Shown here: piece after piece, positions 3,935-48,853 of the stretch
Layout: the number at the start of each line of letters is the position of its first letter
Position numbering within the stretch: the first letter of the stretch is position 1
Virus record (IMG/VR): IMGVR_UViG_3300042922_000736
Span: 1-63,835 of that record
Length of the DNA stretch: 63,835 bases
Strand: one strand, 5' to 3'
Source of the DNA: a virus
Taxonomy: Duplodnaviria > Caudoviricetes
Made by a program: the position numbers and the translations under genes
Notes under the pieces: model-generated
Database searches by the model: none
Told to the model about the DNA's origin: nothing
The model's input: the letters and a program-made list of their open reading frames with translations, nothing else

Positions 3935-4273
3935 TCATGCGGGCCTCCGCAGGCTATCGATCGCCGCCCTATCCGGGTGGCGATAGTTACAGAGCACCTC
4001 GGGAAGCTCGGCATACCGCCCGCGCTCTTTGGCGTTCACATAAAGCTGCTGCTGGCACCATCTCGGGAACTCGTCGTCGAATTCCTCGAGCAGTCGCGCC
4101 ATCTTGCCCTGCCACTCCTCTGGCATCGCGTGCATGAGCGAGCGCGGCATGGTCAGCCAAGAGGCTCGCGACAGACCAAACCAGCGCCATAGGCGCTCGT
4201 CACCCGGCAGGGCCTCGTGCTCGGCGTGGATCTGGTCAATCAACGCCTGATCTTCGGGGCTGTATTCGCTCAC
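3935..4273 (-). CDS. Hypothetical phage protein
   Basis: Coupled ORF with WFGLSRASWLTMPRSLMHAMP. Confidence 0.6.
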   Translation of the reverse strand: MSEYSPEDQALIDQIHAEHEALPGDERLWRWFGLSRASWLTMPRSLMHAMPEEWQGKMARLLEEFDDEFPRWCQQQLYVNAKERGRYAELPEVLCNYRHPDRAAIDSLRRPA

Positions 4274-5541
4274 CCCGCCCTCCTCATCTGCGGTTCATTG
4301 TCGTTCGCGGCTTCCGGAGCGCTCCACCCGCTCACCATCTCCGGCGTGAGCACGATGCGGGACACCTCGCCGAACTTGCGGTGATACGTGATGACCTTCG
4401 CGCTGCGGCCCGACAGCCAACCGCCATTCGCGGCGTAGGCGTCAGCAGCGGCCAGCGTCTCGTGCCGCTCCACCTTCATCAGGTTAGTCGACTTGAGCTC
4501 GTCGCTGTGCAGGTGGCCGAGGTGCGCGTAGCTGAAGCGCGTCCGGCCGTAGGCTTCGCGGAACCTGCCGGCGAACACGCTGTCGACGTTGCCGATCTTC
4601 CGCCGATGGCCGTGATGGAAGAACAGCGACACGTCGCCGTGCTCATAGGCGTAGTAGGTGCCGGCCGTGCTATCGACCGTGATGCGCGGCTCGTCTTCGT
4701 AGAACGCGGCGAACATCTCGCGCAGCCACGCCTCGGAGGCCGGGTCGTGGTTGGCGTCCGCCATGATGACGTGCACCTTGCGGTGCTTCTGCAGCAGCAT
4801 GGCGATGATGCGACGCAGGCACCGGATGGCCACCCGCACCACCTTCTGCAGGCGGCTGTCGGAATCCAGGATGTGCCCGCTCGTGGGCGTCTTGGACTCC
4901 CATCCGTCGTAGTGCAACAGGTCGCCGATCTGCGCCAGCACCGCCGTCTCTGCCGCCGGCGACATCTCGATTGCCGCGGCGAACCAGTCGATGATCAGCC
5001 GCTCCCCGATGTCGAGGTCCCAGTCCGCGCCGGTTTCCTCGCGCCAGGACAGCATGCCGAGGTGTAGGTCGGTGATGGCGAACATGTTGAGCAGGTCACC
5101 ATGCACGCGCTTGATGCTGATAGGCTCAGGAGCGGCCCGCGGAATCTCCTCCTTGAACGCCGCAACTGCGGCGCGCATGGCCTCGGCTTGGGCTTGCTGG
5201 TCGACTTCGTATCGCGTCCAGTCCTGGATGACCCGACCATCCGCGTCGCGGTTCACCGTGATCTTGCCGAGGACGTGGGTCGGCGGCTGGACGAACACCT
5301 CCCCGTGCTCGCGGACCTGCCGCACCCATGCGTCGCCTTGCTTGCTGGCGATGCTGGCGATTTCAAAGCCGGGCACGACGGGCGACGTGCCAAGCATGCC
5401 GAGATTGCCGGCCGCCTTCAGCCGACGCCGCATCGAGTCGCGCTTCATGCCCATGGCGTCGGCCGCGGCCTGCTTGTTACGCCCGTTGGCGAGGTACGCC
5501 GCGACGCATTCGGCGAGGTGCTCTTCGGTGTGGGTGGTCAC
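4270..5541 (-). CDS. Calcineurin-like metallophosphoesterase with N-terminal HTH
   Basis: DLH, GD, NHD, HHGH, GHLH motifs; NKQAAADAMGM HTH. Confidence 0.8.
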   Translation of the reverse strand: MTTHTEEHLAECVAAYLANGRNKQAAADAMGMKRDSMRRRLKAAGNLGMLGTSPVVPGFEIASIASKQGDAWVRQVREHGEVFVQPPTHVLGKITVNRDADGRVIQDWTRYEVDQQAQAEAMRAAVAAFKEEIPRAAPEPISIKRVHGDLLNMFAITDLHLGMLSWREETGADWDLDIGERLIIDWFAAAIEMSPAAETAVLAQIGDLLHYDGWESKTPTSGHILDSDSRLQKVVRVAIRCLRRIIAMLLQKHRKVHVIMADANHDPASEAWLREMFAAFYEDEPRITVDSTAGTYYAYEHGDVSLFFHHGHRRKIGNVDSVFAGRFREAYGRTRFSYAHLGHLHSDELKSTNLMKVERHETLAAADAYAANGGWLSGRSAKVITYHRKFGEVSRIVLTPEMVSGWSAPEAANDNEPQMRRAG

Positions 5542-5780
5542 GCGGAGGCGCCTCCAGAAAGCAGAGCAAGCCCGGCCTCGGTGGGCTCGAACATGCGCTT
5601 GGTGACGTCGAAGTGGGACGGGCGGTAAACGTCGAGCACACCAACCTCCGGCGGGATGGTGATGCTAGCCTTGGCGCCACGAAGGTAGAGCCCGCCCCCT
5701 ACGGCGGCTCCATAGTGGTGTTCGTTGTCGAGCAGCCACTGCACCACCTCTGCCGCAGTCGGCTTCTTGCCTCTGGCCAT
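5538..5780 (-). CDS. Hypothetical protein
   Basis: AGGAGG ribosome-binding site upstream of MARGKK. Confidence 0.55.
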   Translation of the reverse strand: MARGKKPTAAEVVQWLLDNEHHYGAAVGGGLYLRGAKASITIPPEVGVLDVYRPSHFDVTKRMFEPTEAGLALLSGGASA

Positions 5781-5835
5781 ATTCCCCTCCTGAAACGAAA
5801 AAAGGCGCCGCCACCCCTTCGGGCAGCGGCGGATA

Positions 5836-6468
5836 TCAGCGGGCCATGAGCCCACAAACGGCGGAACCGGGCACGACGAAGCCGAAGCCGGTGAAGGACA
5901 CAGAATCCTCGCCCATGCGATGCAGCATGGTCCCGACGGAAATTCCGACCAGGCGTCCGTTGGCGACGACACCGCCACCGGACATGCCGTTGATCATGGA
6001 TCCGTTGACGGTAAAAACGCTGGCCCAATGACCGCGCCGCACAGCCGCGCCGACCACCTCACCGGAGGCCGAAACAAAGTCGATGGCGCTAGGATTGCCG
6101 TAGGCCGTATAGTGAGTGCCGACTGGCGGCTCGTCGCATGACAAAGGGACCGATGCCACGTCGCCGTAATCTGCAATGCGCAGCAACGCGATGTCGTAGT
6201 TGTCGTTGGCCCAGAGGACTTCTGTGTTCTTCTCGACGCCGGTGCTAATCAGCACCTTGGGAGATCCCTGCGCCACCACATGTTGGGCGGTCAGCACGTA
6301 GCCGCCCCCAACATGAACACCCGACCCATGGCCGGTAGGCAGTACGATCTTCACCGCGAAGGAGGCGACGGGGGCGGCAGGCCGAGCAAGGCCGGGCGCC
6401 CCCAGGGAGCAGTAAAGGCCGATGGCGCAGATAATCACCAGCGCCGCGCCAAACAGTCGACCGAACAT
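5836..6468 (-). CDS. Trypsin-like (S1) serine protease with N-terminal signal or anchor
   Basis: GSG...LTAQHVV (His), DIALL (Asp), GMSGGG (Ser). Confidence 0.85.
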   Translation of the reverse strand: MFGRLFGAALVIICAIGLYCSLGAPGLARPAAPVASFAVKIVLPTGHGSGVHVGGGYVLTAQHVVAQGSPKVLISTGVEKNTEVLWANDNYDIALLRIADYGDVASVPLSCDEPPVGTHYTAYGNPSAIDFVSASGEVVGAAVRRGHWASVFTVNGSMINGMSGGGVVANGRLVGISVGTMLHRMGEDSVSFTGFGFVVPGSAVCGLMAR

Positions 6469-19045: not shown

Positions 19046-20908
19046 CTATATCCCCTGCACGTTCCGTCTTTTGGCGTTTGCGACGCTGGTCACGACCATG
19101 CGCGGAATCTCGCCGCGCAACTGCGCCAGCTGCTGTTGCACACGCGCGAGGCCGGCTTCGTCGGCGCCACGCGCGTCGATGCTGATTGGCATGGACACGG
19201 TGACGCTGCCCTTGCCGCTGCCCGCCATGGCGTGGTTCGGCACGATGCGGCCCGCCACGTCCGGCACGAACATTTCCGGGCCGCGCTCGCCGACGCGATA
19301 GATCTGGCCTGCATTGACCGGGCCGCCGACGGCCTTGGAGCCGCCGAAGGAGCCCAGGAGCGAACCCAACAGCCCACCAGGACCGCTGCCGACGGGATTG
19401 AACAGGCTATCCAGCGCCATGCCGAGCAGCTTGTCGCCGACCTTGGCCAGCGCATTGGACAGCGCCTCTGCCGCCGACACGCCGTTCTGCATGTCGGTGA
19501 TGAAGCCGCCGAGCACGTCCTTGCCCAAGTCGTTCAAGTCGGCGAGTTGGCCGACGAGGTATTCCTGCTGCTCGCGCAGCCGCTCTGCCTCAACCGTGGC
19601 TTCGGCATAGGCCGTCGCCAGCGCATCGATGTTCTGCCGGACTTCCGGCGTGATCTCGATCTTGGCGCGCTCAGCGGCGTTGAGCAGGTCCGCCTCAGCG
19701 CGGGCCTTCTCCATCGCGAAGCCGTAGTCATTCACCAGCGGATTGAGCGTGGCCTGGACCGACGTCTCGTACTGGAGCGCTTGCGTGCGCTCCTGAATCA
19801 TCCGCGTCATGCGCTCGTAGGCGTCGAGCTTATCCTTGCCCGGCGCCGGCTGGAACGCCGGCTTGCCGGGATTGACCGTCACCTTGGTGGGGGCGCCGCC
19901 CGACATGCCGAAGGCTTTGTCCCACTCCGCAGACTGAGCGTCGCTAAGCGATGCGCCTTGGCCGAGGCGGAGCTTAAGGTCTGCAACGCCGCGCTGGTCC
20001 ACGGCGAAGGCGTCGCCGAACCGGCCATTCGCGATCAGGTTGTAGTAGACGCTCAGTTCCTTGACGATATCGCGAAGCTGCGTCGCTGCCCCGACCATGG
20101 CGCTGATCGCGCCGGTGTCGGCCATCGTCTTGTAGAGCTCGGTGATAGAGTTATTCAGGCGGTTGATTTCCGCCGTCAGTGTGCTTTTGCGATCGGTGCC
20201 GTAAAGCTCGACCAGCTTATCAGTCAGGCGAGGAATGAGCTCCGTCGCGGGGACGACGCCCTTCTCAAGCAGCTTGCCGAGTTCTTGCTCGGTGACGCCA
20301 AGGGCCTGAGCCGCAAGCCTGAACGCCCCAGGAAGGCGCTCGCCTAGCTGCCCGCGGAGCTCTTCCGAGCTTACCGTGCCCTTCGATATCATCTGCTGGA
20401 TAGCCAGCAGCGCGCCTTGCGTGTCCTCTGAGCTTTTGCCCAGAGACGCCATCGCGGACGACACCGCTTCAAATACGCGGCGGGTCTCCTCGCCCTCCAG
20501 CGCCGTGCCCTTGGTAGCAGCCAGCAGCGACACGTAAGCCTGCCCGGCCGACACAACCTCCAAGCCCAGCCGTTCGCTGGTCTCGGTCAGAAACTTCATC
20601 TCGCGTGCGGCAGCGTCGGAGTCGCCAGTGATAGCCTTCAGGCTACTGCCGAGGCTGTCGACGCTTTGCACCGTCTTTAGGAAATCCTGCGCCGCGAAGC
20701 CAACGCCGAGACCGGCCAACAGCCCCCGCCCCATGCCGGACACAGACGCCGCGAAGGCATCCATGCTGCGCTTGGCGCCAGCGAACCTGCGCTCGATATT
20801 GCGCGTGCTGCGGTTTACGTCGCTGTCGAGCCTGTCTAGGGCGCGCTTTATTTGCCGGGTGTCGGCGCTTATGGTAAGTACCAGCGCCTCAAGATCATTG
20901 TTCGCCAT
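19046..20908 (-). CDS. Tape measure protein
   Basis: QMISKGTVSSEELRGQLGERLPGA domain; GGPV...VGERGPEMFVP. Confidence 0.92.
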   Translation of the reverse strand: MANNDLEALVLTISADTRQIKRALDRLDSDVNRSTRNIERRFAGAKRSMDAFAASVSGMGRGLLAGLGVGFAAQDFLKTVQSVDSLGSSLKAITGDSDAAAREMKFLTETSERLGLEVVSAGQAYVSLLAATKGTALEGEETRRVFEAVSSAMASLGKSSEDTQGALLAIQQMISKGTVSSEELRGQLGERLPGAFRLAAQALGVTEQELGKLLEKGVVPATELIPRLTDKLVELYGTDRKSTLTAEINRLNNSITELYKTMADTGAISAMVGAATQLRDIVKELSVYYNLIANGRFGDAFAVDQRGVADLKLRLGQGASLSDAQSAEWDKAFGMSGGAPTKVTVNPGKPAFQPAPGKDKLDAYERMTRMIQERTQALQYETSVQATLNPLVNDYGFAMEKARAEADLLNAAERAKIEITPEVRQNIDALATAYAEATVEAERLREQQEYLVGQLADLNDLGKDVLGGFITDMQNGVSAAEALSNALAKVGDKLLGMALDSLFNPVGSGPGGLLGSLLGSFGGSKAVGGPVNAGQIYRVGERGPEMFVPDVAGRIVPNHAMAGSGKGSVTVSMPISIDARGADEAGLARVQQQLAQLRGEIPRMVVTSVANAKRRNVQGI

Positions 20909-26778: not shown

Positions 26779-28046
26779 CAGGCTGCCGCCTCGTCTTCGC
26801 TTTGCTGGTCGTTGTCATTGGCGGTCGGCGCTGCCGGCTCGCCCTGCTGTGGTTGCGTCCCCAGCGGCACCGTGGCGCCCTGGATATACAGTTTTTCGGC
26901 CGGCCCGCCCTTGGGTGGCAGGTTCTCCAGACCGCGGACCTCATCCGGAGTCCGAATGCCGTTTTGAATCGCGACGCCATACCCGTCCATGCGGCTCTTG
27001 AAGTCGCCGCGGAGCAGGCCATCAAGATTGTGCTCGACGTAGCGGCTGGTGTTGCCGCGGCCGAACAGCTTCAAGTTCACTTCGCCCTCAAACGCCTCGG
27101 CCCACTGGCCGATGAGGTGCTTGACGAGGTGCAGATCCTGCTGCTCGGCATTCGAGAACGTCGCCCGGCTCAGATCCTGGAGAAACACAGGCGGCAACTG
27201 CCACGCGCGGGCGATCTCTTCGATCTGGAACCGCCGCGCATCGGTCATCTGCCCCTTTTCGGGATCAAAACCGACAGGCGCCAATGTGTAGCCCGGCGGG
27301 ATGGAAAATACCTGCTCGTCTCGGGACTTGGCGCCTTCGATCGCGCGCTTGATTTCGCTCTTAGCGCGAGCAAGGGCCTCCGGGCCCACAGGAAGCGGGC
27401 CGGTCAGTGCGAGTGGCGGGACACCGCCACCGGCAAAGAAGTGGCTGGCGTAGTCGTTCATGGCGAGGGCAAGCTGGATGGCCTTGGCGGCCATCTGCAC
27501 CGGCCCCTTATGGTCGATGCCGTTCGACTTGAGCATGAACGGCAAGTCGATCACGTCGCGCGCCGGGTACTCCCTACCCTCTGTGCGGTAAGTTACCACC
27601 CCGCCAATGCGGGAGACCGTGACCTTGGCCGGATCCAGGGGCCAAAGAGCCTCGATGCCCTGCGGTGTGCGCTCAATCCACGCCAGTCCGCGCCCGCCAG
27701 TGAACACCTGCTGCCAGAAATACTGGCGGAACTTGAAGCTATCCTGCAGGTCGTTTGGTGCGTCGTGGACCACCGCCTCCAGCTTGCCGCCGACGCGCTC
27801 CGAACCGCTCTTGGTCTTGCGATAGGCGTGTAGCGGCAGGGCAGCCATGGTCCGCGACAGGAACGTCACCGCAGCGGCGACAGCCGGCACCTGCAGCGCA
27901 CTGTCTATCGTGACGTGCGGAATATTGGCGCCGCCGACGCCGAAGAACTCCAGAAAGTTCTCGTGGCTTACCGGGATTGTGGGGTTTTCAATCGTTGCCG
28001 CACGTTTCTCCCCCGTTCGGCGGATATCGTAACCGAATATCTTCAT
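26778..28046 (-). CDS. Portal protein, HK97 family
   Basis: EIARAWQLPP, ATFSNAEQQ, LLRGD, TPDEVR. Confidence 0.95.
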   Translation of the reverse strand: MKIFGYDIRRTGEKRAATIENPTIPVSHENFLEFFGVGGANIPHVTIDSALQVPAVAAAVTFLSRTMAALPLHAYRKTKSGSERVGGKLEAVVHDAPNDLQDSFKFRQYFWQQVFTGGRGLAWIERTPQGIEALWPLDPAKVTVSRIGGVVTYRTEGREYPARDVIDLPFMLKSNGIDHKGPVQMAAKAIQLALAMNDYASHFFAGGGVPPLALTGPLPVGPEALARAKSEIKRAIEGAKSRDEQVFSIPPGYTLAPVGFDPEKGQMTDARRFQIEEIARAWQLPPVFLQDLSRATFSNAEQQDLHLVKHLIGQWAEAFEGEVNLKLFGRGNTSRYVEHNLDGLLRGDFKSRMDGYGVAIQNGIRTPDEVRGLENLPPKGGPAEKLYIQGATVPLGTQPQQGEPAAPTANDNDQQSEDEAAA

Positions 28047-30622: not shown

Positions 30623-30623
30623 G

Positions 30624-32527: not shown

Positions 32528-33445
32528 TCACGCTGCTTTTGGCACGTCTTCGTATTTCAGGTGCCCAAGCTGCGTTGCGATGGTGTAGAGCGCCATGATA
32601 GCGACCGCTTTTGCCGTCGCTTCGGCTCGCGCCTTGCCGTTTGAACCGAGCTCGCGTCCGACCACCTCGAGCGTCGCGCCGTCGATGCACAGCCGCTCGA
32701 AGGGCTCGACAACGGGGCCGAGCGCCGCCTTGATCCGTGCCAGCCGTCGCTGGTTGTCGATCATGGCATTCACCCGCTCGTCGCCGCGCCACGGCTTCGG
32801 AACCGGAGCCGCGGGCCGCATCGTGGTTTCCGTGGTGCTGGTCTTCTGCACCGGCGGCATCTCGCTGGCATAGCCCGCCGCGGTAATCTTGCGCTCGCCC
32901 TTGTACACCAGCGCCCCATCGGGACGGACCCAGGTGCGCTGGTCGATCTGCACCGGCTCGAAGCCGAGCGAGGAGCCGCCCAGCAGGGCCTGGCTATTCG
33001 CGCTCGACTCGATCCGACGATAGGCCATGGCGTACTTCAGCAAGTGGCGCTTGTCGTCGTCGAGCAGGGCACGGGCCAGGGGCCACCCATTGTCGTTGTC
33101 AGGCTTGCCGTCCCAGTCCTCGCCGAGGATCTGGCGGTGGCGCGCTCGCGCCCCGGCCCTGCGGCAGGACTTGGCCTCGGCCTTCTCCACCGCGGCCTTC
33201 TCCTTGCGATGACGGTTGGCCAACTCCGCAGATGCCGCAGCAAGCTCGGGATTGGCCTCGCGCCACTTGGGTTTGGCGGGGGTGGCATCGGTAGGCACGT
33301 TGTCGTTGTCAGCGTCGCACACGGCGGGCTCCTGTGGGGATTGCGGGGTATGCGCGCTGTCGTGTTTCTGACGGATAGGTAGTGTTTTGACCGCTATGGC
33401 GCTAGGAAAGCGCGCCGGTATCTGCAGATGTCGCGAGCTATGCAC
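32528..33445 (-). CDS. Putative late-gene regulator
   Basis: C-terminal HTH-like IDGATLEVVGRELG; sits at the Q-like position. Confidence 0.5.
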   Translation of the reverse strand: MHSSRHLQIPARFPSAIAVKTLPIRQKHDSAHTPQSPQEPAVCDADNDNVPTDATPAKPKWREANPELAAASAELANRHRKEKAAVEKAEAKSCRRAGARARHRQILGEDWDGKPDNDNGWPLARALLDDDKRHLLKYAMAYRRIESSANSQALLGGSSLGFEPVQIDQRTWVRPDGALVYKGERKITAAGYASEMPPVQKTSTTETTMRPAAPVPKPWRGDERVNAMIDNQRRLARIKAALGPVVEPFERLCIDGATLEVVGRELGSNGKARAEATAKAVAIMALYTIATQLGHLKYEDVPKAA

Positions 33446-33947
33446 AGGCTGCTAGCGGGGCGTTATCGTTGGCAGCCCCACCAACGCCCGCCGCCAGCCA
33501 CTCCTCCACCGTCGCCTCGACGAGGTCGGCGCACTCCTCCGGCGTTGTGGCGTGGATCGTCACCACCACGTAGCCCAGGCCGATGAGGAGGGCGTGCCGG
33601 TCAATCTGCTCCTCACTCACCTTGCCCTTCTCGGCCTTGAGCTCAATCATCAGTAGCCGGCCGTGGCTGGCATAGATCCGCAAGTCCGGGTCGCCCGCCG
33701 CAATCCCGGTGGCCTTGGCGATGGTCGCCTCCCGCGGGCTGCGGCGAGCCGCGTTGAAATCGCCGGCCAGAGTGAACGCGCCGGGCATGACGGCAGAGGC
33801 GGCATAGTCCGGCCTAGCGCGCAAGCGGCGCACAGCCTCGGCCTGCAGTCGCCACTCCAGGTCCGGCGCCGAGGCCGTGCTGGTCGTCACGACCTTCGTG
33901 CCGTTCGCCGTGGTGCGGGTGCGCTTGCGGGTGACGGTGCGGGGCAT
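33438..33947 (-). CDS. VRR-NUC nuclease
   Basis: EWRLQ, GDPDL, IELKAEKGKVSEEQ. Confidence 0.85.
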   Translation of the reverse strand: MPRTVTRKRTRTTANGTKVVTTSTASAPDLEWRLQAEAVRRLRARPDYAASAVMPGAFTLAGDFNAARRSPREATIAKATGIAAGDPDLRIYASHGRLLMIELKAEKGKVSEEQIDRHALLIGLGYVVVTIHATTPEECADLVEATVEEWLAAGVGGAANDNAPLAACA

Positions 33948-36992: not shown

Positions 36993-37360
36993 AACGGACT
37001 TTCATGCTTCAGCGTCGTCACCAGCGCCTCGCGGCGCCCGGCCTCGACACGCTCCAGGAATTCGAACCACTCGTCCTCCGTCAGGCTGGCGAGGTCCGTC
37101 TTTCCGATCTCGTCGAGATACGCCCCGCCGGCTTCGCCGCCCTCGTGGACGGCCAGGCGCTCGATGCGGGTAAGCTTGGGCTGAGGCATGCGATACGTGT
37201 CCCTTGCGAGTGGGATGCAGTCGGTGTCGTCACAGAGCCAGGCGACGGGGTCTGGCGGGTGGTATGGCCACGCTGGTGGCGGAGCCCAACCAAGACCAAC
37301 GCCGGGTCGGCCACAGACGGCGCAGATGAGGTAGTTGTTGAGGCGCTGGGGGGCGGTCAT
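36989..37360 (-). CDS. Replication-associated hypothetical protein (DUF6511-like)
   Basis: CAVC; GGEAGGAYLDEIGKTDLA. Confidence 0.6.
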   Translation of the reverse strand: MTAPQRLNNYLICAVCGRPGVGLGWAPPPAWPYHPPDPVAWLCDDTDCIPLARDTYRMPQPKLTRIERLAVHEGGEAGGAYLDEIGKTDLASLTEDEWFEFLERVEAGRREALVTTLKHESPF

Positions 37361-38052
37361 GCGGCGTCACCAAAGAGCGATGCGGTGACGGTGTTGTCGT
37401 TGGCGGGTGCGGCGGCGACGAACATGTCGGGCTGCTTGTAGGCGTCCGCAATGCGGCGGCAAGCGACTTCGAAGTATGTCGGCTCGCGCTCTATGCCTAT
37501 GAACTTGCGGCCAGCCTTGACGCATGCAACGCCCGTGGTTCCTGAGCCCATGAAGGGGTCTAGGATGGTGGTGGCGCCCTTAACGAAACCGAGGCACCAC
37601 GCCATCAACTCTATAGGCTTTTGCGTTGGGTGTTCTTTTCCGTCGTTTTTTGCCTTCGCTCTAGCATAGGTGAATATGCGGGCCGCCTTCTGCTGCGAAG
37701 ACCATGCAAACTCACAGTCCGCAAGAGAAAAGTTTCTCTGCCCTTTATCCCAGACCAGCCACTGCATGGTGGGGGCAAGATAGTCTGTAAAATAATTACC
37801 GCCCCATATTATCTGATGCTTAGAGGCCGAGATAATAGCATCGAATACTTCCTTTGAGGGGCGCTCGGCATCCCATGATACGTTCTCCCGCCACGGCCCC
37901 CACCCGTGGCTCGCGCTGAAGCCGCCCGATCGGCCGTAGTCGATCCCATACGGCGGGTCCGTCACAACCGCATCAACACGACCAAGCGTCGGCATCACTT
38001 CCATGCAGTCGCCGAGATACAGCGTGCAATCACCAATCTGCTCTACGCGCAT
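37357..38052 (-). CDS. DNA N6-adenine/N4-cytosine methyltransferase (beta class)
   Basis: DPPY, HPTQKP, LDPFMGSGTT. Confidence 0.92.
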   Translation of the reverse strand: MRVEQIGDCTLYLGDCMEVMPTLGRVDAVVTDPPYGIDYGRSGGFSASHGWGPWRENVSWDAERPSKEVFDAIISASKHQIIWGGNYFTDYLAPTMQWLVWDKGQRNFSLADCEFAWSSQQKAARIFTYARAKAKNDGKEHPTQKPIELMAWCLGFVKGATTILDPFMGSGTTGVACVKAGRKFIGIEREPTYFEVACRRIADAYKQPDMFVAAAPANDNTVTASLFGDAA

Positions 38053-38624
38053 GCCCGCACCTCAGCGTTGTCATTCGCCGCCTCAAACTTCGTCGTCTCC
38101 AGCCCCCACGCCGTCCATCCCGGCCACGCTTGACGAGCGAACATCTCGAGATACGGCCCGGCCACCAGGCGCTCTATGCGCTCGTACTGCTCGTCCGGCT
38201 TGCGGCTGTGCTCACGGCGGAGTGCCCGGATGATCTGCCGCACTCCCTTGCCCAGCCGCTTGGGCTTGCCGCGCTTGAACAGGTGGCAGACCTCAGCCTC
38301 CTGCCGCGTCCAGTAGCCCATACCCATGCGCCCCTTGTCCCAGATGAAGGCGAGCGAGACCGGCTTGAAGCCCCACGCCGCGGCGACATCCATGGCCTCG
38401 CGCTGCAGGTGCGAAACGGTCCACATAAACAGCAGGCAATCGCGCGCCGACACCTCGGCGACGGGCAGCGCCTTGAGGTCGTCGAGCGACATCGTGCTGT
38501 AGGGCTGCACGCCCTGCGTCGGGGCCAGATGCGCGCCGCCATAGCTGGTGAATCGCCAGGGCGGATCCGCGAGCAGGCAGCCAAAGGGGCCTTGCGGCAA
38601 CGGCTCGTGCATGTTGCGCTCCAT
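38043..38624 (-). CDS. MT-A70 family adenine methyltransferase
   Basis: ADPPW, LFMW, HSRKP, LEMFAR. Confidence 0.9.
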   Translation of the reverse strand: MERNMHEPLPQGPFGCLLADPPWRFTSYGGAHLAPTQGVQPYSTMSLDDLKALPVAEVSARDCLLFMWTVSHLQREAMDVAAAWGFKPVSLAFIWDKGRMGMGYWTRQEAEVCHLFKRGKPKRLGKGVRQIIRALRREHSRKPDEQYERIERLVAGPYLEMFARQAWPGWTAWGLETTKFEAANDNAEVRACA

Positions 38625-40354
38625 CAGAAGGGTATCTCGTCGTCCAAGTCCGCCACTCGCGACGGACCACCCACAGCCCGCGCCAACTTCGGCGCCGGCT
38701 CGTAATTGTCGTTGGCGCCGCCGGGCTTCCAGTCAATGACGTCCTGGTACTTGCCGGCCGGCTTGAGCCGTACCTCCATGGTCGGCGCGAGCTCGTCCGC
38801 CCTACGCAGCCATTCCTCAACGCTGGCCGGGAACGGCCGGTCTCCGCCGTGCTTCGCCCAGTACCTATCTGCCTTCGACTTGGCGTAGCCGGTGTGCTGG
38901 GGGCACAACCATTCCCGTTGTGTCGACAGCCCAAGCCTGTAGTCCACCCTCACGCTCGGCGGCTTGGCGGGATCCTTGTTGATGTGCTCCCGGAACGTGC
39001 GGCCAACGACAGTGCGCCAGTCCTCCTGCGTGGAGATGATCACCGCCTCGCTGGGCTTGGCGGAATACTTCGGCGTGGTGTCGAATTCGAATTCGTGGCC
39101 GCAGCAGGTACAGATACGTGCCGCGGCATGGACGATTTCCTCGCAGGTCGGGCAGAGCTTAATCGGTGCTTGTCCGTCACCCTTCCCCGGAGTCCGCGGG
39201 GAAATCATGTCTACCGGGCCGTGCTCATCGATGTTGCCGGCGAAGTCCATGTAGCGGCAGTTGGGCTTGATCGACGACGCGATGGCCGCGCGCCTTGCTT
39301 CGGCCTCGACTGCATCCGGGTCGAACCCCGGCGGGTAAATGACACGCGTTCCGCGGCCGACGCGCTGGACGTAGCGGCTCGCCGAAAGGGTCTTGTAGAG
39401 ATCCACGATAAGGTCGACGCCGACGATATTGGTGCCGGTGGACAAGACGTTGTCATTGCTGAGCGCCCACAGCTTGCCAGCCTTCAGGGCCTCAATGAGG
39501 TTGCGGCGCTCGCCCTTCGGCGTCCTGCCGCTCACCACTTCGCAGCTTCGACCAGCCGCCCGGATAGCGTCGCGGATATGTGTGGCGTGCTCAATGCCGC
39601 GGCAGAAGAACAGTGCCTTGCGGCGATGCCCTTCGACGTCCAACACCTCCTCCACGATGCGCCGGTTCAACTCGTCGGTGTCGACGGCCTTGGTGTACTC
39701 GCCGAGCTTGTACTCGCCCATGGCGCGCCCAACGCCGGACAGGTCGTACTTCGTGCCGGTGGGCTTCGACGTGATGGGGCAGAGAAAGCCGTCGTCGATG
39801 CCACGCCGGATGCCGTATTCGTAGACGACCTTGTCAAATAGCCGGTCGTCGCCCTCATCCAGGCGGCCAGATGTGAGGCGGTACAGCGTGGCGCTGAACC
39901 CGGCGATCTTCATATCCGGGTTGATGGCTAGCAGATCGCTGATGAGCGACCTGTACATCGTGTTGCCGTCTTCCGGGACGGTGTGCACCTCGTCGATCTG
40001 CAGCAGGTCGACGCCGCCGATTTCCTTGGCCTTGTTCCATACGGTCTGCAGCTGGCCGTACAGCACTTGGGCGCGCGTGTTGCGCTGCCCAAGCGAAGCG
40101 GCATACACCCCCGCCGGCGCGAAAGGGGCGAGGCCGAGCATCTCCTTATAGTTGCCCTCGACGAGCTCCTGGACATGGGCGCAGTTCATGATACGCAGGT
40201 CTTTGTAGTCGTTGATAAGCTCAACGGCCTGCGTCGCCATGGTCATGGACTTCCCGGTCCCGGTCGCCATGTCGATGAGCGGATTCCCGCTTTCGCCGGA
40301 CCAGTAATCCAGCGTCGCGTCGATCGCCTCTCTTTGGTAGTAGCGCAGCGCCAT
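38624..40354 (-). CDS. SF2 helicase (RadD/YejH-like)
   Basis: LRYYQ, TGTGKS, DEVH, SAT, QRVGRGTR, CPTC. Confidence 0.9.
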   Translation of the reverse strand: MALRYYQREAIDATLDYWSGESGNPLIDMATGTGKSMTMATQAVELINDYKDLRIMNCAHVQELVEGNYKEMLGLAPFAPAGVYAASLGQRNTRAQVLYGQLQTVWNKAKEIGGVDLLQIDEVHTVPEDGNTMYRSLISDLLAINPDMKIAGFSATLYRLTSGRLDEGDDRLFDKVVYEYGIRRGIDDGFLCPITSKPTGTKYDLSGVGRAMGEYKLGEYTKAVDTDELNRRIVEEVLDVEGHRRKALFFCRGIEHATHIRDAIRAAGRSCEVVSGRTPKGERRNLIEALKAGKLWALSNDNVLSTGTNIVGVDLIVDLYKTLSASRYVQRVGRGTRVIYPPGFDPDAVEAEARRAAIASSIKPNCRYMDFAGNIDEHGPVDMISPRTPGKGDGQAPIKLCPTCEEIVHAAARICTCCGHEFEFDTTPKYSAKPSEAVIISTQEDWRTVVGRTFREHINKDPAKPPSVRVDYRLGLSTQREWLCPQHTGYAKSKADRYWAKHGGDRPFPASVEEWLRRADELAPTMEVRLKPAGKYQDVIDWKPGGANDNYEPAPKLARAVGGPSRVADLDDEIPF

Positions 40355-40764
40355 TAGGCAGCCTCGCGTGCGACGTGGTTATCATTCGCCCCGCGCCGCT
40401 CATGCCGGTAGCGCTGAGGCTTGGGCGCCTCGTACCAGAACGCCACCCGCGGAGGCTCGTGGTAGCAGGCCACGACGATAGGGTCGGCGTCGCGATATCG
40501 GCGCTCCGCCTTGCGCAGCGTGGCGCCGCTTTCCATGGCGGTGTCGATGATGAGCAACCGGCCAAGATGCGTCGGAACGACCGCGCCGTACGGGATGAAC
40601 GGCACGTGCAGGATGTGGCTGGCATAGACCGCTGCCACAGCGCCGCTGCGGCCGGGGCCGGTGACGCTGCCGACGTCGCCGTATGCCGTCGCGGGCTTGC
40701 CGTCATCGCCCGTCAGCAAGCCGCGGATACGGTCGGCGAACTCGGCTTCGCTCACGATCCTCAC
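40354..40764 (-). CDS. Phosphoribosyltransferase-fold protein
   Basis: GPGRSG and LIIDTAMESGATL (PRPP-loop-like). Confidence 0.6.
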   Translation of the reverse strand: MRIVSEAEFADRIRGLLTGDDGKPATAYGDVGSVTGPGRSGAVAAVYASHILHVPFIPYGAVVPTHLGRLLIIDTAMESGATLRKAERRYRDADPIVVACYHEPPRVAFWYEAPKPQRYRHERRGANDNHVAREAA

Positions 40765-41294
40765 GCCGCGGCCCTCCGCTCCGCGCCCATGCCCGCCACC
40801 AGCCGCTGCCGGGCCTCGCGCTCAAGCTGCTGTGCCCGCTGCCGCGAGATGCCCATGCTCTTGCCGACCTCCGTGAAGGTCTCGCCCACGGCCACCCTGG
40901 CAAGGATGGCGCCGCCACGGCCATTCAGGCGGCGGGCTATGAGGCTAAGGTCTGTGGACTGCTCCTGCGTGGCTGGCGTGCCGGTCATCGGTATGTCGTT
41001 GCGGGTCACGAACATGCGCTTGCGTTGTTCCTGCGTGCGATACGACTTGCAGATGTTGAGCATCTGCCACCGCAGGTACTCCCACGGCGCCGCGCCTCTG
41101 TAGTCCTGCCAATTCTTCAGGCAGTGGATGATGGTGTCGGTGACCAGGTCCTCACGTTCCTCGCCGCGGAAGCCGAGCCGGTAGGCAAGGCTCGACAGAC
41201 CGGGCCGGTACTGCATCAGCATCGCGTCGAAGGCCGCGGGGCGGGTGGCGGCGATGGAAGAAGGCGTAGGGGTGTTGTCGTTGTGTGCGTGCAT
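40761..41294 (-). CDS. ECF/sigma-70-like factor
   Basis: EDLVTDT region 2; TFTEVGKSMGISRQRAQQL region 4. Confidence 0.8.
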   Translation of the reverse strand: MHAHNDNTPTPSSIAATRPAAFDAMLMQYRPGLSSLAYRLGFRGEEREDLVTDTIIHCLKNWQDYRGAAPWEYLRWQMLNICKSYRTQEQRKRMFVTRNDIPMTGTPATQEQSTDLSLIARRLNGRGGAILARVAVGETFTEVGKSMGISRQRAQQLEREARQRLVAGMGAERRAAA

Positions 41295-41342: not shown

Positions 41343-41873
41343 TCAGGCGGCTTCCGCCGCCCAGCTACGACGCGCGATCTCGGCGCGGATGTCGTCTAGG
41401 TGCACCGGCGTGTAATTGGTCCGCTCGACGCAAACGCAGATGTGCCGCGGCGATGGCTCAGGCTTCTCGTGGATATGGCCGTGCACATTGAACCCCGTGC
41501 GCATCTGGTCCGACGCAAGCGGGATGTGGCTGCAGGTGAAGTCGTATTCCTTGAACACGCGCCATAGCTGCACGCGCTTGAAATGGGCGGACAGGTCGAA
41601 GCGCTTGATGTCGTCGTGGTTGCCAAGCACGAGGCGCTTCGAGCCGCGCAAGCGGGCCGCGATAACCGGCCAGCGTGACTTGTCGAAGGACACGTCGCCA
41701 AGGTGATAGACCTTGTCGCCGTCGCGCACGACGCTGTTCCATCGCTCAATCATGGTCTCGTCCATCTCCTCAACGGAGGCGAACGGACGGATGACACTGC
41801 CGGCCACGTCGCGGAACGTGAGGAAGTTGGCGTGGCTGAAATGCGTGTCGCTGGTGAAGAAGATGTTACCCAC
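41343..41873 (-). CDS. Calcineurin-like metallophosphoesterase
   Basis: SDTHF, HLGD, GNHD, HGHIH. Confidence 0.9.
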   Translation of the reverse strand: MGNIFFTSDTHFSHANFLTFRDVAGSVIRPFASVEEMDETMIERWNSVVRDGDKVYHLGDVSFDKSRWPVIAARLRGSKRLVLGNHDDIKRFDLSAHFKRVQLWRVFKEYDFTCSHIPLASDQMRTGFNVHGHIHEKPEPSPRHICVCVERTNYTPVHLDDIRAEIARRSWAAEAA

Positions 41874-42835
41874 TACGCAGCCTCCTCTGCCGCCTCGTTG
41901 TCGTTGTCGTTGCTGGCGCCGTCGGTCCAAAGCGTCCCATCGGCGAGCTCGTAGGTGATAGATTCCAGATCCGGGTCGCAATCGACCTGGCGGCCCGGCA
42001 CAAAGCCCGGATTAAAGAGATGCGCTGGGCACGATTCCCGCTGCTCGTCGAGCGAGAGCGGCTTTGACCAGCGAGCGCAAGACCACTGACAATCGCCGCC
42101 CCGCTCCGGCTGGACGTGGATGCATGAGCGGCACGTCACCCGCGGCATCTCGCGTTCATGGCAAACCGCGTGGTGCTTGCAGAGCAGGCACTTGTAGAAT
42201 TCAGGATCCTCCGAAAGCCGCGACGGCGGCGTGTCGGTGAATACGATGCGTTCGGCGCGCGCCAGAGTTCGCAGGCAATAATCGGCGTCGTAGTTGATGC
42301 GCTCGGCGTATCTGGCGTCGTCGTTCTTGTTCACAACGACGTATAGCGCACGGGACAGACCGAACATATGCATCCCAAGCTGCACCTGGGCGTAGTGCAA
42401 AGGTTTTGCGTCCTTGCACTTTTTGGCGACGATATCCCTGAAGTTCTTATCGTTGCTGCTCTTGAACTCGCAAAGGTGCTCCGTGACGGGCGCTTCCGGC
42501 ACGCCAATGGCCTTGCCGTCACACTTACCGCGGACGAACCCATGCACTAGCCGGATACGGTCCTGCTGCCCCCACACCTCAACCCCGATCGACTGCAGGT
42601 CGGCAACAAGCCGCTCTTCCCACATGTCGCCGGTGCGGAAGATGGAAATCTTCTGGCCGGTCAGTTCTTCCGGCTGGCTTGCCCACCTGAGCGAATAGAA
42701 CAGCGCCCGGTCGCACTCGTTGCCGATCTCGCCGACGCTGATGCCGAGCGAGTCATAGTGCTCGTTAGCGGCGACATACGCGGCATAGATCGCCTCGACC
42801 GTGGCGCTGGTGGTGGGTTGGGGTAGTGGGGCCAT
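41873..42835 (-). CDS. Cas4-like PD-(D/E)xK exonuclease
   Basis: C..RALFY, CDG, EFK, HYAQVQ, CxxC...C cluster ligands. Confidence 0.8.
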   Translation of the reverse strand: MAPLPQPTTSATVEAIYAAYVAANEHYDSLGISVGEIGNECDRALFYSLRWASQPEELTGQKISIFRTGDMWEERLVADLQSIGVEVWGQQDRIRLVHGFVRGKCDGKAIGVPEAPVTEHLCEFKSSNDKNFRDIVAKKCKDAKPLHYAQVQLGMHMFGLSRALYVVVNKNDDARYAERINYDADYCLRTLARAERIVFTDTPPSRLSEDPEFYKCLLCKHHAVCHEREMPRVTCRSCIHVQPERGGDCQWSCARWSKPLSLDEQRESCPAHLFNPGFVPGRQVDCDPDLESITYELADGTLWTDGASNDNDNEAAEEAA

Positions 42836-43504: not shown

Positions 43505-44557
43505 TCAAACCCGCATCGGCATTGCGACGGCGGTCAGATCCCCGCCCGCTGTGAACAGGATTGGCGAAAGCGGATCACCGAACCGCATCTCGACTTCCGC
43601 CGCACCGAACGCGGCCAGCGTCTCGACGAGGTAGGCGCCGTTGATCCCAACGCTGAACGGCTCGCCGCTGTACTCGGCCTCGATGTCTTCGCCGGCCTCG
43701 CCGCCAGCACCGCGGGCCGTGACCGTGATGGCGCCCGGCGCAATGTCGAGCCGCACCGACTTCGACAGCGTGTCCTGCACCGTCATGGCGAGCTCGGTGG
43801 CCTTGGTAAGCCGCACCTTGTCCACCCGCACCGCCAGCGGATTGCCTTCCGGCACGACGCGGGCATAGTCCGGAAACACCCCGTCCACGAGCTTCGACGT
43901 GAGCACGACGTCGCCTGCAGAAACGCGGATCTTGGAACCCGACAGCGCCACCGTGGCCGGGCCCTTGGGCAGCGCGGCAATGGCTTTCTTGGGCACGATC
44001 GACGCCGGCACGTAAACCGACACGTCGGTCTGGCGCTTGGCCAGCTTGTGGCCGTCGGTGGCGACGGCGACCAGCCCATCGCTGGTGTGATGCAGGTACA
44101 CGCCCCGCAGATAATACCGGGTCTCCTCGTCCGACTGCGCATAGGCAACCGGCGCGACGAGCGCGGCGAAGTCCGTCTCGAATTCGGCGGTGAACTCGCC
44201 GGCGTTGAGCGCCGGATAGTCGTCGGGGCTGACCGTGGCCAGCTTGGATCTGGACCGACCGGACTTCACGACAAGCGTGTCGCCGTCGACCTGCAGCGCG
44301 ACGCTGTCGCCGCTGAGGCGCTTGACGACGTCGCCGAGGCGGATGGCGTCAACTGCGGTGCAGCCTGGCAGCATGACCTCAGCCGGAGCCTTGACGGACA
44401 TTTCCATGTCCAGGTCGGTGGCGCGCACCGTGAGCGTGTCGCCGTCGGCGGACAGGTGCACGCAAGCGAGGATCGGGATGGTGTTGCGCCGCTCGACGAC
44501 ACGCGAGACAGCCGCAAGGGCTCGCGCCAGATCGGCGCGCTGAACTGTGATGTGCAT
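43505..44557 (-). CDS. dnaN: DNA polymerase III beta sliding clamp homologue
   Basis: TIPIL, ATDLD, ETRYYLRGV, VATDGHKL, FPDY.RV, MPMRV. Confidence 0.92.
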   Translation of the reverse strand: MHITVQRADLARALAAVSRVVERRNTIPILACVHLSADGDTLTVRATDLDMEMSVKAPAEVMLPGCTAVDAIRLGDVVKRLSGDSVALQVDGDTLVVKSGRSRSKLATVSPDDYPALNAGEFTAEFETDFAALVAPVAYAQSDEETRYYLRGVYLHHTSDGLVAVATDGHKLAKRQTDVSVYVPASIVPKKAIAALPKGPATVALSGSKIRVSAGDVVLTSKLVDGVFPDYARVVPEGNPLAVRVDKVRLTKATELAMTVQDTLSKSVRLDIAPGAITVTARGAGGEAGEDIEAEYSGEPFSVGINGAYLVETLAAFGAAEVEMRFGDPLSPILFTAGGDLTAVAMPMRV

Positions 44558-46600: not shown

Positions 46601-47176
46601 TCACGCAGCGCGCTTGGCGCCCCACGGGCGGCTGCCGGCTGGCTTCGCCGCTGCCGCGGGCTGTGCCGCCGCAGGACGGGCCGCGGGGCGGTTATCGTTC
46701 GCGGCGGGCTTGGGGGCCTGAGCCGGCTGAGAGTCGTCGATGCCGGGAGCCGGGATGTCGTCGGAGTCCGGGAAGTAGTACCGCTTGATCTCGGCGCGGG
46801 CCGGGTACTGGCCGTCCTTCGACGGCTTACCGAGGCCGATCTTGGCGGTGTAGGATTTGAAGTGGAGGTCCTCACTTTCTTCGACGTCGTTGACGCCGAT
46901 GGCCCGGCAGAGCGAGGCGAACTGGCGCTGTCCGATTTCCTGCGCCTGCGGGCTCGGGTTCTCGAGGTTGAAGTTTGCGAACAGCTTGCGCCCCTCGTAT
47001 TCGACGGGCTCAATGACGCGGTTCGTCACCTTCAGGATGGTGCCTCTGCCGTCCTTGGTCGGCGAGACGTCGGACGCCTCGATTTCCAGGAGATAGACGC
47101 CGTTCGGGAGTTCGGAATAGTCGTTCTGCGTCGTGTCGTGGGCGGTCGCGTCAAAGCGCTGGCCGAGAGAAGCCAT
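46601..47176 (-). CDS. DUF669 family protein (putative ssDNA-binding)
   Basis: LPNGVY, GRKLF, FNLEN...IGQRQ; lies near the Sak4-like gene. Confidence 0.75.
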   Translation of the reverse strand: MASLGQRFDATAHDTTQNDYSELPNGVYLLEIEASDVSPTKDGRGTILKVTNRVIEPVEYEGRKLFANFNLENPSPQAQEIGQRQFASLCRAIGVNDVEESEDLHFKSYTAKIGLGKPSKDGQYPARAEIKRYYFPDSDDIPAPGIDDSQPAQAPKPAANDNRPAARPAAAQPAAAAKPAGSRPWGAKRAA

Positions 47177-47214
47177 AGGGTGTCTCCTAAGTGCTGCTGC
47201 TGTTGAGTGAGGGA

Positions 47215-48051
47215 CTACGCCGCGCGCAGAGTGTCGGCGATGCGCTGGAACTGGTCGGAGAGGTCGCGAAACGACGCGCCTACGGATAGGGTGACGTTGA
47301 GCGTGGTGGGGGTGGGCCCGACGAGCTCGAGGTTGCTCAGCAGCGGCCCGCGCGGCCAGCCAATGCCGTCGTCCCATTCGGCCTCAATGCTGCCGTCAGC
47401 CTCAATCGCGGTGATGCGACCGACCGCGCCAATACGTGAAGTATCGTGGACGTCGGGGTCGGCTCCGGTGTAGCGCACCCTATCCCCCACCTTGAACTTC
47501 GGCTTGGTCTCCGCTGCGGGCTCCGCAGCCGGGACCGGGGCGGGCTCGACGATGCGATAGGCGACGAACTGGTCGCTCCACAAGAGGGCGTCTGACGTGG
47601 CCTCCATAGGGAAGAACTCGCGGTCTTTGCGCTCCTCCAGCAGTAGCCACTGGACCTTGGCGCCAGGAGCAGGATTCCCGCCGCCGCGGTATTCGATCCA
47701 GCCGCTGGTGCCTTCCGGCACCCACGCCTCCACCTTCTCCACCGCCTCGACGGGCAGCCACGAGCCGATCTTGAGCAGCACGATGTCGCCCTTGGTGGAA
47801 TCGACCTCGGCGGTGTAGCTGCCGTCGGTGAACGGCTCGCCGGACTTCAGGCGGACGGTGTCGTTGGGGGAGACGTCGTAGGCAAGGACGTATTCGCGCC
47901 CCCACAACGGATAGTATTCGTCTTTGTCGTCGTAGACCCACACGACATCATTGTTCTGCACCTCACGCACTACGTATGTCTTGTTGGAGCTCACGTCGTG
48001 TACGTTGGCGGTCGGGCGAATCACATCACCCACTTTCACTACACTCATCAT
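47215..48051 (-). CDS. Hypothetical multi-domain protein (SH3-like modules)
   Basis: KVGDVI and FKVGDRV. Confidence 0.5.
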   Translation of the reverse strand: MMSVVKVGDVIRPTANVHDVSSNKTYVVREVQNNDVVWVYDDKDEYYPLWGREYVLAYDVSPNDTVRLKSGEPFTDGSYTAEVDSTKGDIVLLKIGSWLPVEAVEKVEAWVPEGTSGWIEYRGGGNPAPGAKVQWLLLEERKDREFFPMEATSDALLWSDQFVAYRIVEPAPVPAAEPAAETKPKFKVGDRVRYTGADPDVHDTSRIGAVGRITAIEADGSIEAEWDDGIGWPRGPLLSNLELVGPTPTTLNVTLSVGASFRDLSDQFQRIADTLRAA

Positions 48052-48058
48052 CCCCTCC

Positions 48059-48853
48059 TCACGCCGCCTTTCGGCTCGTTGCAGCGGCGTTGTCGTTGGC
48101 CGCAGGGAAATACTTGGAAAGTTCGGCGAAGCCGGCGCCCTTCACGTAGCGCAGCGAGTCCGGCATGCTGAACCTGTTCTTGGCTACGAAGCCGGCGCCC
48201 TCCACGAGGTGGATCTGGCGCTCCTTGCCGCCCTCGGCGTGCGTGACGGTCTTCTTCGGCGCGACCTCTTTTTCCTTCAGCGTCACGCGGTAGTTCATGA
48301 ATGCCACCACGTCTGCCTGCTCGCGCACCAGGGCGTTTCCGCGCTTGTGCAGCTTGATCGTGTAACGGCTGTACGGGTCGGTCGTGGGCGAGTCGAAGCG
48401 CACGATTTCCGGGTGCGCCAGCTGCACCACGGCAATGCCGGCCTGCTGCAGTTCGCCCATGGCGGCAAGAAATTCCCGCCATTCGGCGTCGGCCTCGACA
48501 TAGCCGCGGCCATAGCCGGGCTCTTCGATCGACGACACGCCAAGCCGGGCACAGGTCGCCTTCCAGATCAGCCCCTCGAGTCCATCAAGCGAGTCGATGA
48601 TGACCGTCTTGAAGTCGTGCTGCTTATCGAGCAGTTCGCCTACGACGCTCCACAGGTCGTCTAGCGACTTGATCGTGCCGGGGGTCGGCATATCGACGGC
48701 CGACGGCGGGCGCTCGCCCTCGGTGGGCAGATAGACCGGGTCGGGCCATTCAGCGGCCAGGCTGGTCTTGCCGATGCCGTCGACGCCGTACAGCACGACG
48801 ATGGGCGGCTTGGTGCTCTTGCTGGATTTCAGCGAGGAAAGGGAGATTGCCAT
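48059..48853 (-). CDS. Sak4-like AAA_24 ATPase
   Basis: YGVDGIGKT, IIDSLD, GYGRGY, AKNR. Confidence 0.85.
   Translation of the reverse strand: MAISLSSLKSSKSTKPPIVVLYGVDGIGKTSLAAEWPDPVYLPTEGERPPSAVDMPTPGTIKSLDDLWSVVGELLDKQHDFKTVIIDSLDGLEGLIWKATCARLGVSSIEEPGYGRGYVEADAEWREFLAAMGELQQAGIAVVQLAHPEIVRFDSPTTDPYSRYTIKLHKRGNALVREQADVVAFMNYRVTLKEKEVAPKKTVTHAEGGKERQIHLVEGAGFVAKNRFSMPDSLRYVKGAGFAELSKYFPAANDNAAATSRKAA

Follow-up and report, generated by a model that had tools for sequence, protein, structure and literature searches.

An ANDN motif on many proteins of a phage related to 16-3 resembles the opening of the host tmRNA tag

Introduction

Record IMGVR_UViG_3300042922_000736 of the IMG/VR database, 63,835 bases, is a whole virus genome (Caudoviricetes) with a completeness of 100% by CheckV; this stretch is called the window in the following. 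Many of its proteins carry the short sequence ANDN, in a number of cases close to the C-terminus. The question raised by these motifs is whether they imitate the ssrA tag of the host, which transfer-messenger RNA (tmRNA) adds to proteins by trans-translation. The initial annotation, made from the sequence alone, had claimed that they do, and that SspB and ClpXP may be used systematically to time or limit the phage proteins. From the analyses described here it appears rather probable that the phage genes, with the sequence [AP]-A-N-D-N, imitate the ssrA tag and that SspB and ClpXP would thereby be recruited.

Results

Enrichment of NDN in the phage proteome

A six-frame scan of the window revealed 21 NDN tripeptides. 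The gene set consisted of 100 genes (18,678 residues), called with a custom simple codon-usage caller and including an Xis open reading frame (ORF; 62166-62576) that was added by hand. These proteins contain 19 copies of NDN, while 2000 within-protein shuffles gave a mean of 0.86 and a maximum of five. NDN is the most over-represented tripeptide of the proteome, 22 times above expectation, and the motif is borne by 16 of the 100 proteins. Within the last 20 residues it was found in eight proteins (shuffle mean 0.074, maximum two), and in all eight it stands 7-11 residues before the stop. Chance as the source of NDN is effectively excluded. A habit of the host proteome was also considered and rejected: 217 proteins of one 235-kb contig of the Agrobacterium rosae chromosome contain six copies with 3.21 expected, and none of the 217 has NDN in its last 20 residues. 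The enrichment over shuffled and host proteins, which had been named as a check, was thus observed, and the nine C-terminal tails quoted in the initial annotation were all found as written, on minus-strand genes.

The level of the signal was apparent from the DNA. On both strands together, 21 AAYGAYAAY sites are present, with about one expected by base composition, and 20 of the 21 are read in frame within a gene. NDN is spelled in five synonymous codon versions, whose proportions fit the codon usage of the genome, and the DNA around the core differs from tail to tail. In-frame sites, synonymous variation and unlike flanks argue for selection at the protein level and not for a repeated DNA element.

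Over 102 copies in eight related genomes the consensus is [AP]-A-N-D-N-x-[PA]. Alanine directly precedes NDN in 70 copies, and alanine or proline is found two residues before it in 72. The motif lies outside Pfam and PHROG domains, in N- or C-terminal extensions, with two exceptions, in a helicase and a peptidase, that look structural.

Eight C-terminal tails of the window carry the motif near the stop:

4273..4311 (-): tail AANDNEPQMRRAG of a DNA repair exonuclease-like protein ('phosphoesterase'), gene 4270-5541; phrog_704 covers residues 4-403 of 423
26781..26825 (-): tail TANDNDQQSEDEAAA, quoted earlier as ANDNDQQSEDEAAA, of the portal protein, gene 26778-28046; the Phage_portal domain reaches residue 375 of 422 and the motif follows at 410
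33441..33476 (-): tail AANDNAPLAACA of a VRR-NUC protein, gene 33438-33947
37360..37407 (-): tail PANDNTVTASLFGDAA of an N6/N4 DNA methylase, gene 37357-38052
38046..38081 (-): tail AANDNAEVRACA of an MT-A70 methyltransferase, gene 38043-38612; the motif, at 180, follows the MT-A70 domain, whose last residue is 172 of 189
40357..40392 (-): tail GANDNHVAREAA of a 133-aa protein ('PRTase-like'), gene 40354-40755; no Pfam or PHROG match
41876..41917 (-): tail ASNDNDNEAAEEAA of a Cas4-domain exonuclease, gene 41873-42835; phrog_1990 stops at residue 280 of 320
48062..48103 (-): tail AANDNAAATSRKAA of a Sak4-like AAA_24 protein, gene 48059-48853, used for the docking model; the AAA_24 domain stops at residue 228, the motif is at 253

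Five of these tails end in AA, two in CA (both ACA) and one in AG (RAG). They are not true tmRNA tags, as they consist of ordinary in-frame codons ahead of the stop.

Similarity to host tmRNA tags

Host tags were obtained from four genomes with related prophages. In all four an alpha-type tmRNA is present, and the tags read by ARAGORN are ANDNNAKEYALAA (two genomes), ANDNYAEARLAA and ANDNNARVAVAA. Each of the four opens with ANDN, to which 8-9 residues are added, the last two being AA. ANDN, being common to the four, is therefore the invariant part of the tag. The comparison with the host tag bore out what the initial annotation had predicted, since the phage tails match it in the ANDN opening, in length (8-9 residues in the host, 7-11 after NDN in the window tails), in their position at the extreme C-terminus and, though not in every case, in the Ala-Ala end. 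They differ in that they are encoded in the genes, that their middle part varies freely, that the residue before AA is often charged, and that some end in CA, VA or AG.

SspB is also encoded in all four host genomes. The sspB gene was found ~150-350 bases from the tmRNA gene in each of them, so that the adaptor is encoded right beside the tag. Alpha-type SspB reads the opening part of the ssrA tag. The host SspB proteins have a conserved C-terminal peptide behind a variable acidic linker, a layout that would fit the E. coli adaptor by analogy. There, as passages of one report describe, the folded domain of SspB binds the tag's seven opening residues and its tail tethers the adaptor to ClpX (PMC9963277).

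Spacing and ends of the tails were also compared across the related phages. Among 440 proteins of the eight related genomes, 39 have NDN at most 20 residues from the end, and in 23 of these 7-9 residues follow it. The terminal AA is present in 21 of the 39 and in 66 of the other 401 proteins (Fisher p 6e-7, a value to be read with the common descent of the tails in mind). A larger set from 45 clade genomes or loci comprises 229 distinct tails, with orthologs and ORF segments from any frame included, so that its counts are descriptive. In 106 of them 6-10 residues follow NDN; 67 of these end in AA and 25 more in xA. Where 14-40 residues follow, 24 of 92 end in AA. The C-terminal class thus appears, judged by its sequences, to copy the spacing and the preferred end of the host tag.

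The earlier caveat was that a terminal EAA can arise from overlapping ribosome-binding sites. Neither these nor start/stop overlaps are the main source of the AA ends: untagged genes should then show them as well, and of 18 untagged genes that overlap their neighbour by 1 or 4 bases, only one has a terminal AA. Two tagged tails are followed by gaps, of 115 nt and 167 nt; the first is the VRR-NUC tail, whose end is free of such a constraint because the next called gene lies 115 nt downstream. A terminal AA is frequent in the window beyond the tails listed above: 17 of the 100 proteins have it (shuffle mean 1.84; 17 of 217 in the A. rosae chromosome sample). Five of the 17 are motif-tagged, and the excess is present among the remainder also.

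Model of a tail with SspB

The modelled complex joins residues 1-120 of A. rosae SspB, for which the four host SspBs were aligned, to the C-terminal 40 residues of Sak4 (225-264). The model scored 0.61, the best of three controls 0.01. The mark used is passed by 58 of 80 solved complexes and by two of 110 mismatched pairs, counts that are only a rough guide here because our own alignment was supplied. The runs agree in at least 56% of the contacts, and the predicted local distance difference test score (pLDDT) of the partner is at least 48. Confident contacts of the tail comprise residues 249-257, FPAANDNAA, which is the conserved motif only. In the model the Sak4 motif lies on the SspB groove; this supports binding but does not show it. 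Solved structures exist for Caulobacter SspB with a peptide (2qaz) and for Agrobacterium SspB (2nys).

Distribution and turnover in the clade

The closest named relatives of the window phage are the temperate Rhizobium/Sinorhizobium phages 16-3, whose natural host is Sinorhizobium meliloti, and RHph_TM3_3_14B (TM3_3_14B); head genes are ~68-70% identical to theirs at the DNA level, and the Sak4 proteins 66% and 58%. NDN is enriched in both, with 17 copies observed and 1.05 expected in 16-3, and 19 and 1.31 in TM3_3_14B. The same applies to prophage pieces from Agrobacterium rosae (14 observed, 0.47 expected), a Bosea species (11, 0.33), a metagenome-assembled genome of the Proteobacteria (8, 0.39) and an uncultured member of the Rhizobiaceae (9, 0.66). 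RHph_Y3_1, which shares the head module only, has five copies with 0.78 expected. Among IMG/VR loci whose helicase is at least 47% identical to that of the window, NDN occurs 4-20 times per locus in 38 out of 38, and ANDN twice or more. Seventeen loci with a helicase of at most 39% identity have 0-4 NDN and no ANDN, even at similar GC. The possibility of a general trait of alphaproteobacterial phages was rejected: six-frame scans of PBC5 (first 50 of 57 kb), Brucella phage Tb and RcapMu (first 39.0 of 39.3 kb) revealed three, six and one NDN, respectively, none of them tag-like.

A counterpart was also sought for gamma-proteobacterial hosts. Lambda contains four NDN and no ANDE. The back-translated eight-residue opening of the E. 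coli type matches four IMG/VR stretches, none of them a tag on a long ORF, a negative result that is weak because a single strict pattern was used. One of the four is a frame of 31 residues at the end of a contig (L091, 13733-13755 (-)), which closes with a complete E. coli-type tag. ARAGORN detected no tmRNA there; the frame may be a tmRNA gene cut at an attachment site, or a construct. On the Bosea prophage (L006, ~16843 (+)) an ORF ends in ..NADNDNYEARMVLAL, near a real tmRNA tag in style but ending in AL, and again ARAGORN found no tmRNA.

Within the clade, protein families behave differently. The motif is near-fixed in the helicase (NDN within the last 45 residues in 40 of 42 orthologs, often in two copies), the DUF669 protein (C-terminal tail, 39 of 39), the N6/N4 methylase (C-terminal tail, 8 of 8) and MT-A70 (5 of 6). 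It is variable in the Cas4 exonuclease, where 17 of 42 orthologs have the tag at most 12 residues from the end and the rest stop ~10 residues earlier, in Sak4 (11 of 40), in the C-terminal tail of VRR-NUC (9 of 20 clade orthologs) and on the N-terminal side of the sigma factor (8 of 16). In variable families it is typically an appended tail of ~12 residues, and untagged orthologs end just before it. With only 11 of 40 orthologs tagged, the Sak4 tail was evidently gained and lost. Other tails persist: AANDNEPQMRRAG of the DNA repair exonuclease-like protein is kept in 16-3 and TM3_3_14B, and the portal motif in these two and in RHph_Y3_1. Such gain and loss of appended tails would be the behaviour of short linear motifs under recurrent selection, and the motif is a quickly evolving trait of this clade.

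N-terminal, linker and internal copies

The 102 copies of the eight related genomes are not confined to protein ends. While 43 are at most 20 residues from the C-terminus, 13 are at 21-40 residues, 22 in the first 60 residues and 24 internal. The window contains the following copies of this kind:

2154..2168 (-): PANDN, residues 32-36 of a dNMP kinase-like protein, gene 1536-2261; P-loop domain from ~residue 56
3338..3352 (-): YANDN, residues 59-63 of a DUF1937 / nucleoside 2-deoxyribosyltransferase-like protein, gene 2972-3526
6199..6213 (-): WANDN in a trypsin-like peptidase, gene 5836-6468, within Trypsin_2 (residues 48-176)
33089..33313 (-): ADNDN and PDNDN, both towards the N-terminus of the 32528-33445 protein, a relative of p107 of 16-3 without family match
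38705..38719 (-): GANDN in the helicase, gene 38624-40354, within its C-terminal linker and 26 residues ahead of the end ..DLDDEIPF
39449..39463 (-): LSNDN in the C-domain of the helicase, within Helicase_C (residues 235-337)
41274..41288 (-): AHNDN, residues 3-7 of a sigma-70-type factor, gene 40761-41294; Sigma70_r2 from residue 26
46691..46705 (-): AANDN in the Ala/Pro-rich tail of the DUF669 protein, gene 46601-47176; DUF669 stops at residue 125 of 191
56855..56869 (+): GNNDN, residues 26-30 of a DnaA-C-like helix-turn-helix protein, gene 56780-57637
62226..62240 (+): HDNDN near the N-terminus of the Xis-like ORF 62166-62576

The internal copies named earlier, in the dNMP kinase, the helicase, the sigma factor, the 32528-33445 protein ('late regulator') and Xis, are accordingly all present. 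YANDN belongs to an N-terminal extension, because DUF1937 comprises residues 75-178. GNNDN is a weaker instance, as the alanine before NDN is missing. The site matching HDNDN of the window Xis reads AANDN in the Xis of 16-3. Two copies do not seem to be linear motifs. In the helicase LSNDN, residues N300, D301 and N302 are invariant in an alignment of five sequences, which suggests a structural NDN, and WANDN of the peptidase, not retained in the TM3_3_14B ortholog, is probably structural or due to chance.

Several of the motif-bearing proteins have a second conserved element at their end. In the DUF669 protein, whose tail has the form AANDNRP...KRAA, the motif (residue 160) is 29 residues before the end ..RPWGAKRAA, and none of the 39 orthologs has it within 12 residues of the end. 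The end itself (46601-46630 (-)) shows PW in the last eight residues of all 39 orthologs, in RPWGK-like form. The helicase end (38624-38650 (-)) has PF in 38 of 42 clade orthologs and [DE]x[IVLF]PF in 35. The tip of bacterial SSB is an acidic ..IPF; by sequence, the helicase end resembles it, as if the docking peptide of SSB were borrowed. In the methylase tail PANDNTVTASLFGDAA, ANDN is followed by an LF-type motif and then by the terminal AA. The form NDN..[LI]F..end is found in 14 distinct clade tails, mainly of methylases, for example ..SPQLSLFGDAA in TM3_3_14B. The clamp-binding consensus is a hydrophobic pentapeptide of the Q-x-x-L-F type. The LF-type methylase ends (37360-37380 (-)) look like such a motif, and the methylases may ride the clamp. 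ANDN itself contains no hydrophobic residues and does not qualify as a beta-clamp-binding motif, and the LF-type motifs are a separate element.

Genome features and gene names

Most genes between ~1 and 49,800 are on the minus strand, and the GC content of the window is 64%. A tRNA-Met gene (52-127 (+)) and an integrase gene (62414-63649 (+)) are located at opposite ends of the record, with the Xis-like ORF 62166-62576 beside the latter; this layout resembles that of a prophage whose ends mark a tRNA attachment site. Most of the gene names given initially were backed by family searches (Pfam, PHROG), namely portal, VRR-NUC, N6/N4 methylase, MT-A70, helicase, DUF669, AAA_24/Sak4-like, Cas4-domain exonuclease, DNA repair exonuclease (phrog_704), sigma-70-type factor and dNMP kinase-like, as was a beta clamp. 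'PRTase-like' found no backing, the 133-aa protein being without any match. The beta clamp gene (DnaN-type, 43505-44557 (-)) is the phage's own.

A phage-borne tmRNA was considered as well. ARAGORN called a permuted tmRNA with a 25-residue tag at 20818-21285 (-), overlapping the end of the 620-residue gene 19046-20908. Rfam alpha_tmRNA has no match in the window, where Rfam finds a tRNA only, and the call is treated as false for lack of this support. SspB (PF04386) has no match in the window either, even at E <= 1.

Discussion

Proposed function of the motif

The eight full tails would, by their sequence, rebuild the host tag in its two parts, an SspB site followed by a ClpX site. If so, the ANDN segment would be bound by host SspB, as in the docking model, the protein would thereby be tethered to ClpX, and its weak Ala-Ala end would be engaged for degradation by ClpXP. 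Levels of nucleases, methylases, recombination proteins and free portal could in this way be capped or limited in time, and would follow the free SspB-ClpXP capacity of the cell. The copies at N-termini and in linkers, as in the helicase, DUF669, the sigma factor, the dNMP kinase and Xis, would provide SspB binding without a C-terminal degron; such adaptor-only copies could tether the protein on behalf of a degron at another of its sites, or compete for the adaptor.

The degron proposed initially therefore covers part of the copies: those at C-termini match the host tag, whereas the N-terminal and internal ones, 46 of 102, are left out. This and several other points weigh against recruitment of SspB and ClpXP as the general explanation. 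Together with the 13 copies at 21-40 residues from the end, these 46 can bind an adaptor but cannot be C-terminal degrons. The universal carriers, helicase and DUF669, belong to the non-terminal class, so that a C-terminal degron is not the whole story, and both hold the motif upstream of another conserved end motif. Three of the eight window tails lack the terminal AA, and the charged residue that often precedes AA in phage tails takes the place of L or V in host tags. A phage that put a strong degron on a structural protein, the portal, and on the proteins of its own replication would seem to pay a high price, and PBC5, Brucella phage Tb and RcapMu, from the same host group, manage without the motif. 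As to the evidence itself, the host tags are those of hosts of related prophages, p-values overstate the support because orthologous tails are not independent, and the docking result may reflect memory of the solved structure 2qaz and hence likeness, not binding.

Alternative explanations

The main rival explanation is a different reader of ANDN. The motif would then be a docking site for another hub of host or phage, in the replisome, in recombination or an assembly factor; its likeness to ssrA would be convergent or coincidental, and it would localise proteins instead of destroying them. Most carriers belong to the replication/recombination module, over half of the copies are away from the C-terminus, the phage has its own beta clamp, and the same tails bear further motifs (..PF in 38 of 42 helicases, PW in 39 of 39 DUF669 proteins, the LF-type in methylases). 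Like clamp-binding motifs and the SSB tip, ANDN is short, resides in disordered tails, is rapidly gained and lost, and co-occurs with these motifs. Those replication docking motifs are hydrophobic or acidic, however, while ANDN is polar and found also on portal, sigma factor, kinase and Xis. Its presence on these proteins and in RHph_Y3_1, in spite of a different replication module, argues for a reader in the host. Moreover, the motif is the only invariant part of four host tags, and tail length and terminal AA follow the host tag, neither of which a generic docking site needs. The model places the motif on SspB, and no alternative candidate reader has been put forward. On balance a different reader is considered unlikely.

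A second possibility, a sub-variant of tag mimicry, is that abundant phage proteins act as decoys which soak up SspB, and perhaps ClpXP, slowing host quality control or the breakdown of particular proteins during lytic growth. The number of carriers (16 of 100 proteins, helicases often with two copies) is in line with this, as are the adaptor-only copies, which are common and best conserved, and the AA ends, weak next to LAA or VAA of the host. A decoy does not require the tight spacing of 6-10 residues or the enrichment of AA, however, and one abundant decoy protein would be cheaper than tagging many enzymes. This role therefore appears slightly less likely still.

Finally, an AC-rich RNA or DNA element ahead of the next start (for translational coupling, as a standby site or for protein binding) that happens to be translated as NDN is very improbable and, by the frame and synonymous-codon evidence, close to refuted: many copies are indeed found 25-40 nt ahead of the next start codon and some tail ends overlap a ribosome-binding site, such as GAGGAGG in the exonuclease tail, but 20 of the 21 sites keep to the coding frame, the five synonymous versions occur at codon-usage proportions, flanking DNA is not alike, the copies at N-termini or inside proteins precede no start, and the tails before the gaps of 115 and 167 nt bear the motif too.

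Comparison with known systems

The effect of a genuine tag fused to a gene has been described in Caulobacter. Passages of that report give the sequence of the ssrA tag and state that proteolysis was so fast that deletion of sspB was needed to slow it (PMC9393093). In E. coli, a screen of C-terminal pentapeptides is described in which alanine at the last two positions dominates ClpXP degrons, an LVA-type end being functional too (PMC10862746). The phage tails share with the host tag the ANDN segment, modelled on the SspB groove; in the phage, unlike the host tag, this half also stands alone at N-termini and in linkers.

Mycobacteriophage BPs, with its ssrA-like tags, comes closest as a precedent. 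According to passages of the source, such C-terminal tags destabilise the virally encoded form of the repressor gp33 and the integrase, as part of integration-dependent immunity (PMC4557955). In both cases a temperate phage encodes a look-alike of the host degradation tag on its proteins, which in BPs sets their stability. In BPs two regulatory proteins are tagged; here there are eight full tags and ~16 motif-bearing proteins, mainly DNA enzymes. The integrase is tagged in BPs, while that of the window (62414-63649), ending ..KPAQKAG, has neither NDN nor an AA end, and immunity of the BPs type, where attP is situated within the repressor gene, is not indicated. The window yielded no homolog of the 16-3 C repressor, whose own end reads ..LAGKYW. 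The half copied here is the one that binds the adaptor, which the BPs passages seen do not describe. In the literature covered, with most subscription journals and supplements outside its scope, the two-protein tags of mycobacteriophages were the only precedent found.

When the ClpX end of an engineered tag is weakened, breakdown requires the adaptor. Engineered SspB-dependent degradation tags of this kind exist (PMC3064785). The phage tails would be comparable, in that a good adaptor site is joined to a ClpX site of reduced strength at the C-terminus, so that breakdown would depend on the availability of SspB. Engineered tags are laboratory constructs, whereas the phage case, if the sequences are read correctly, would be natural, proteome-wide and viral.

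Implications

A broader proposal can be put forward tentatively. A clade of temperate Rhizobiales phages may have co-opted SspB-ClpXP as a shared layer of post-translational control, with the adaptor-binding half on 10-20% of the proteome, a protease threshold, and adaptor-only copies serving as a scaffold on the SspB dimer or as a sensor of translational stress. It is speculation that at such a threshold leaky expression in the lysogen would be erased, while lytic expression or tmRNA-tagged debris would saturate the shared protease, so that the tagged proteins rise together.

If the tails work, they would be the first natural case found of a virus that copies the adaptor-binding half of the host tmRNA tag across many proteins. 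The proteome of such a phage would be tunable as a group through one host protease adaptor, and its development would be tied to the load on host ribosome rescue. The tails would also represent natural SspB-dependent degrons of graded strength for alpha-proteobacteria, and they would show how fast short linear motifs can turn over on viral proteins.

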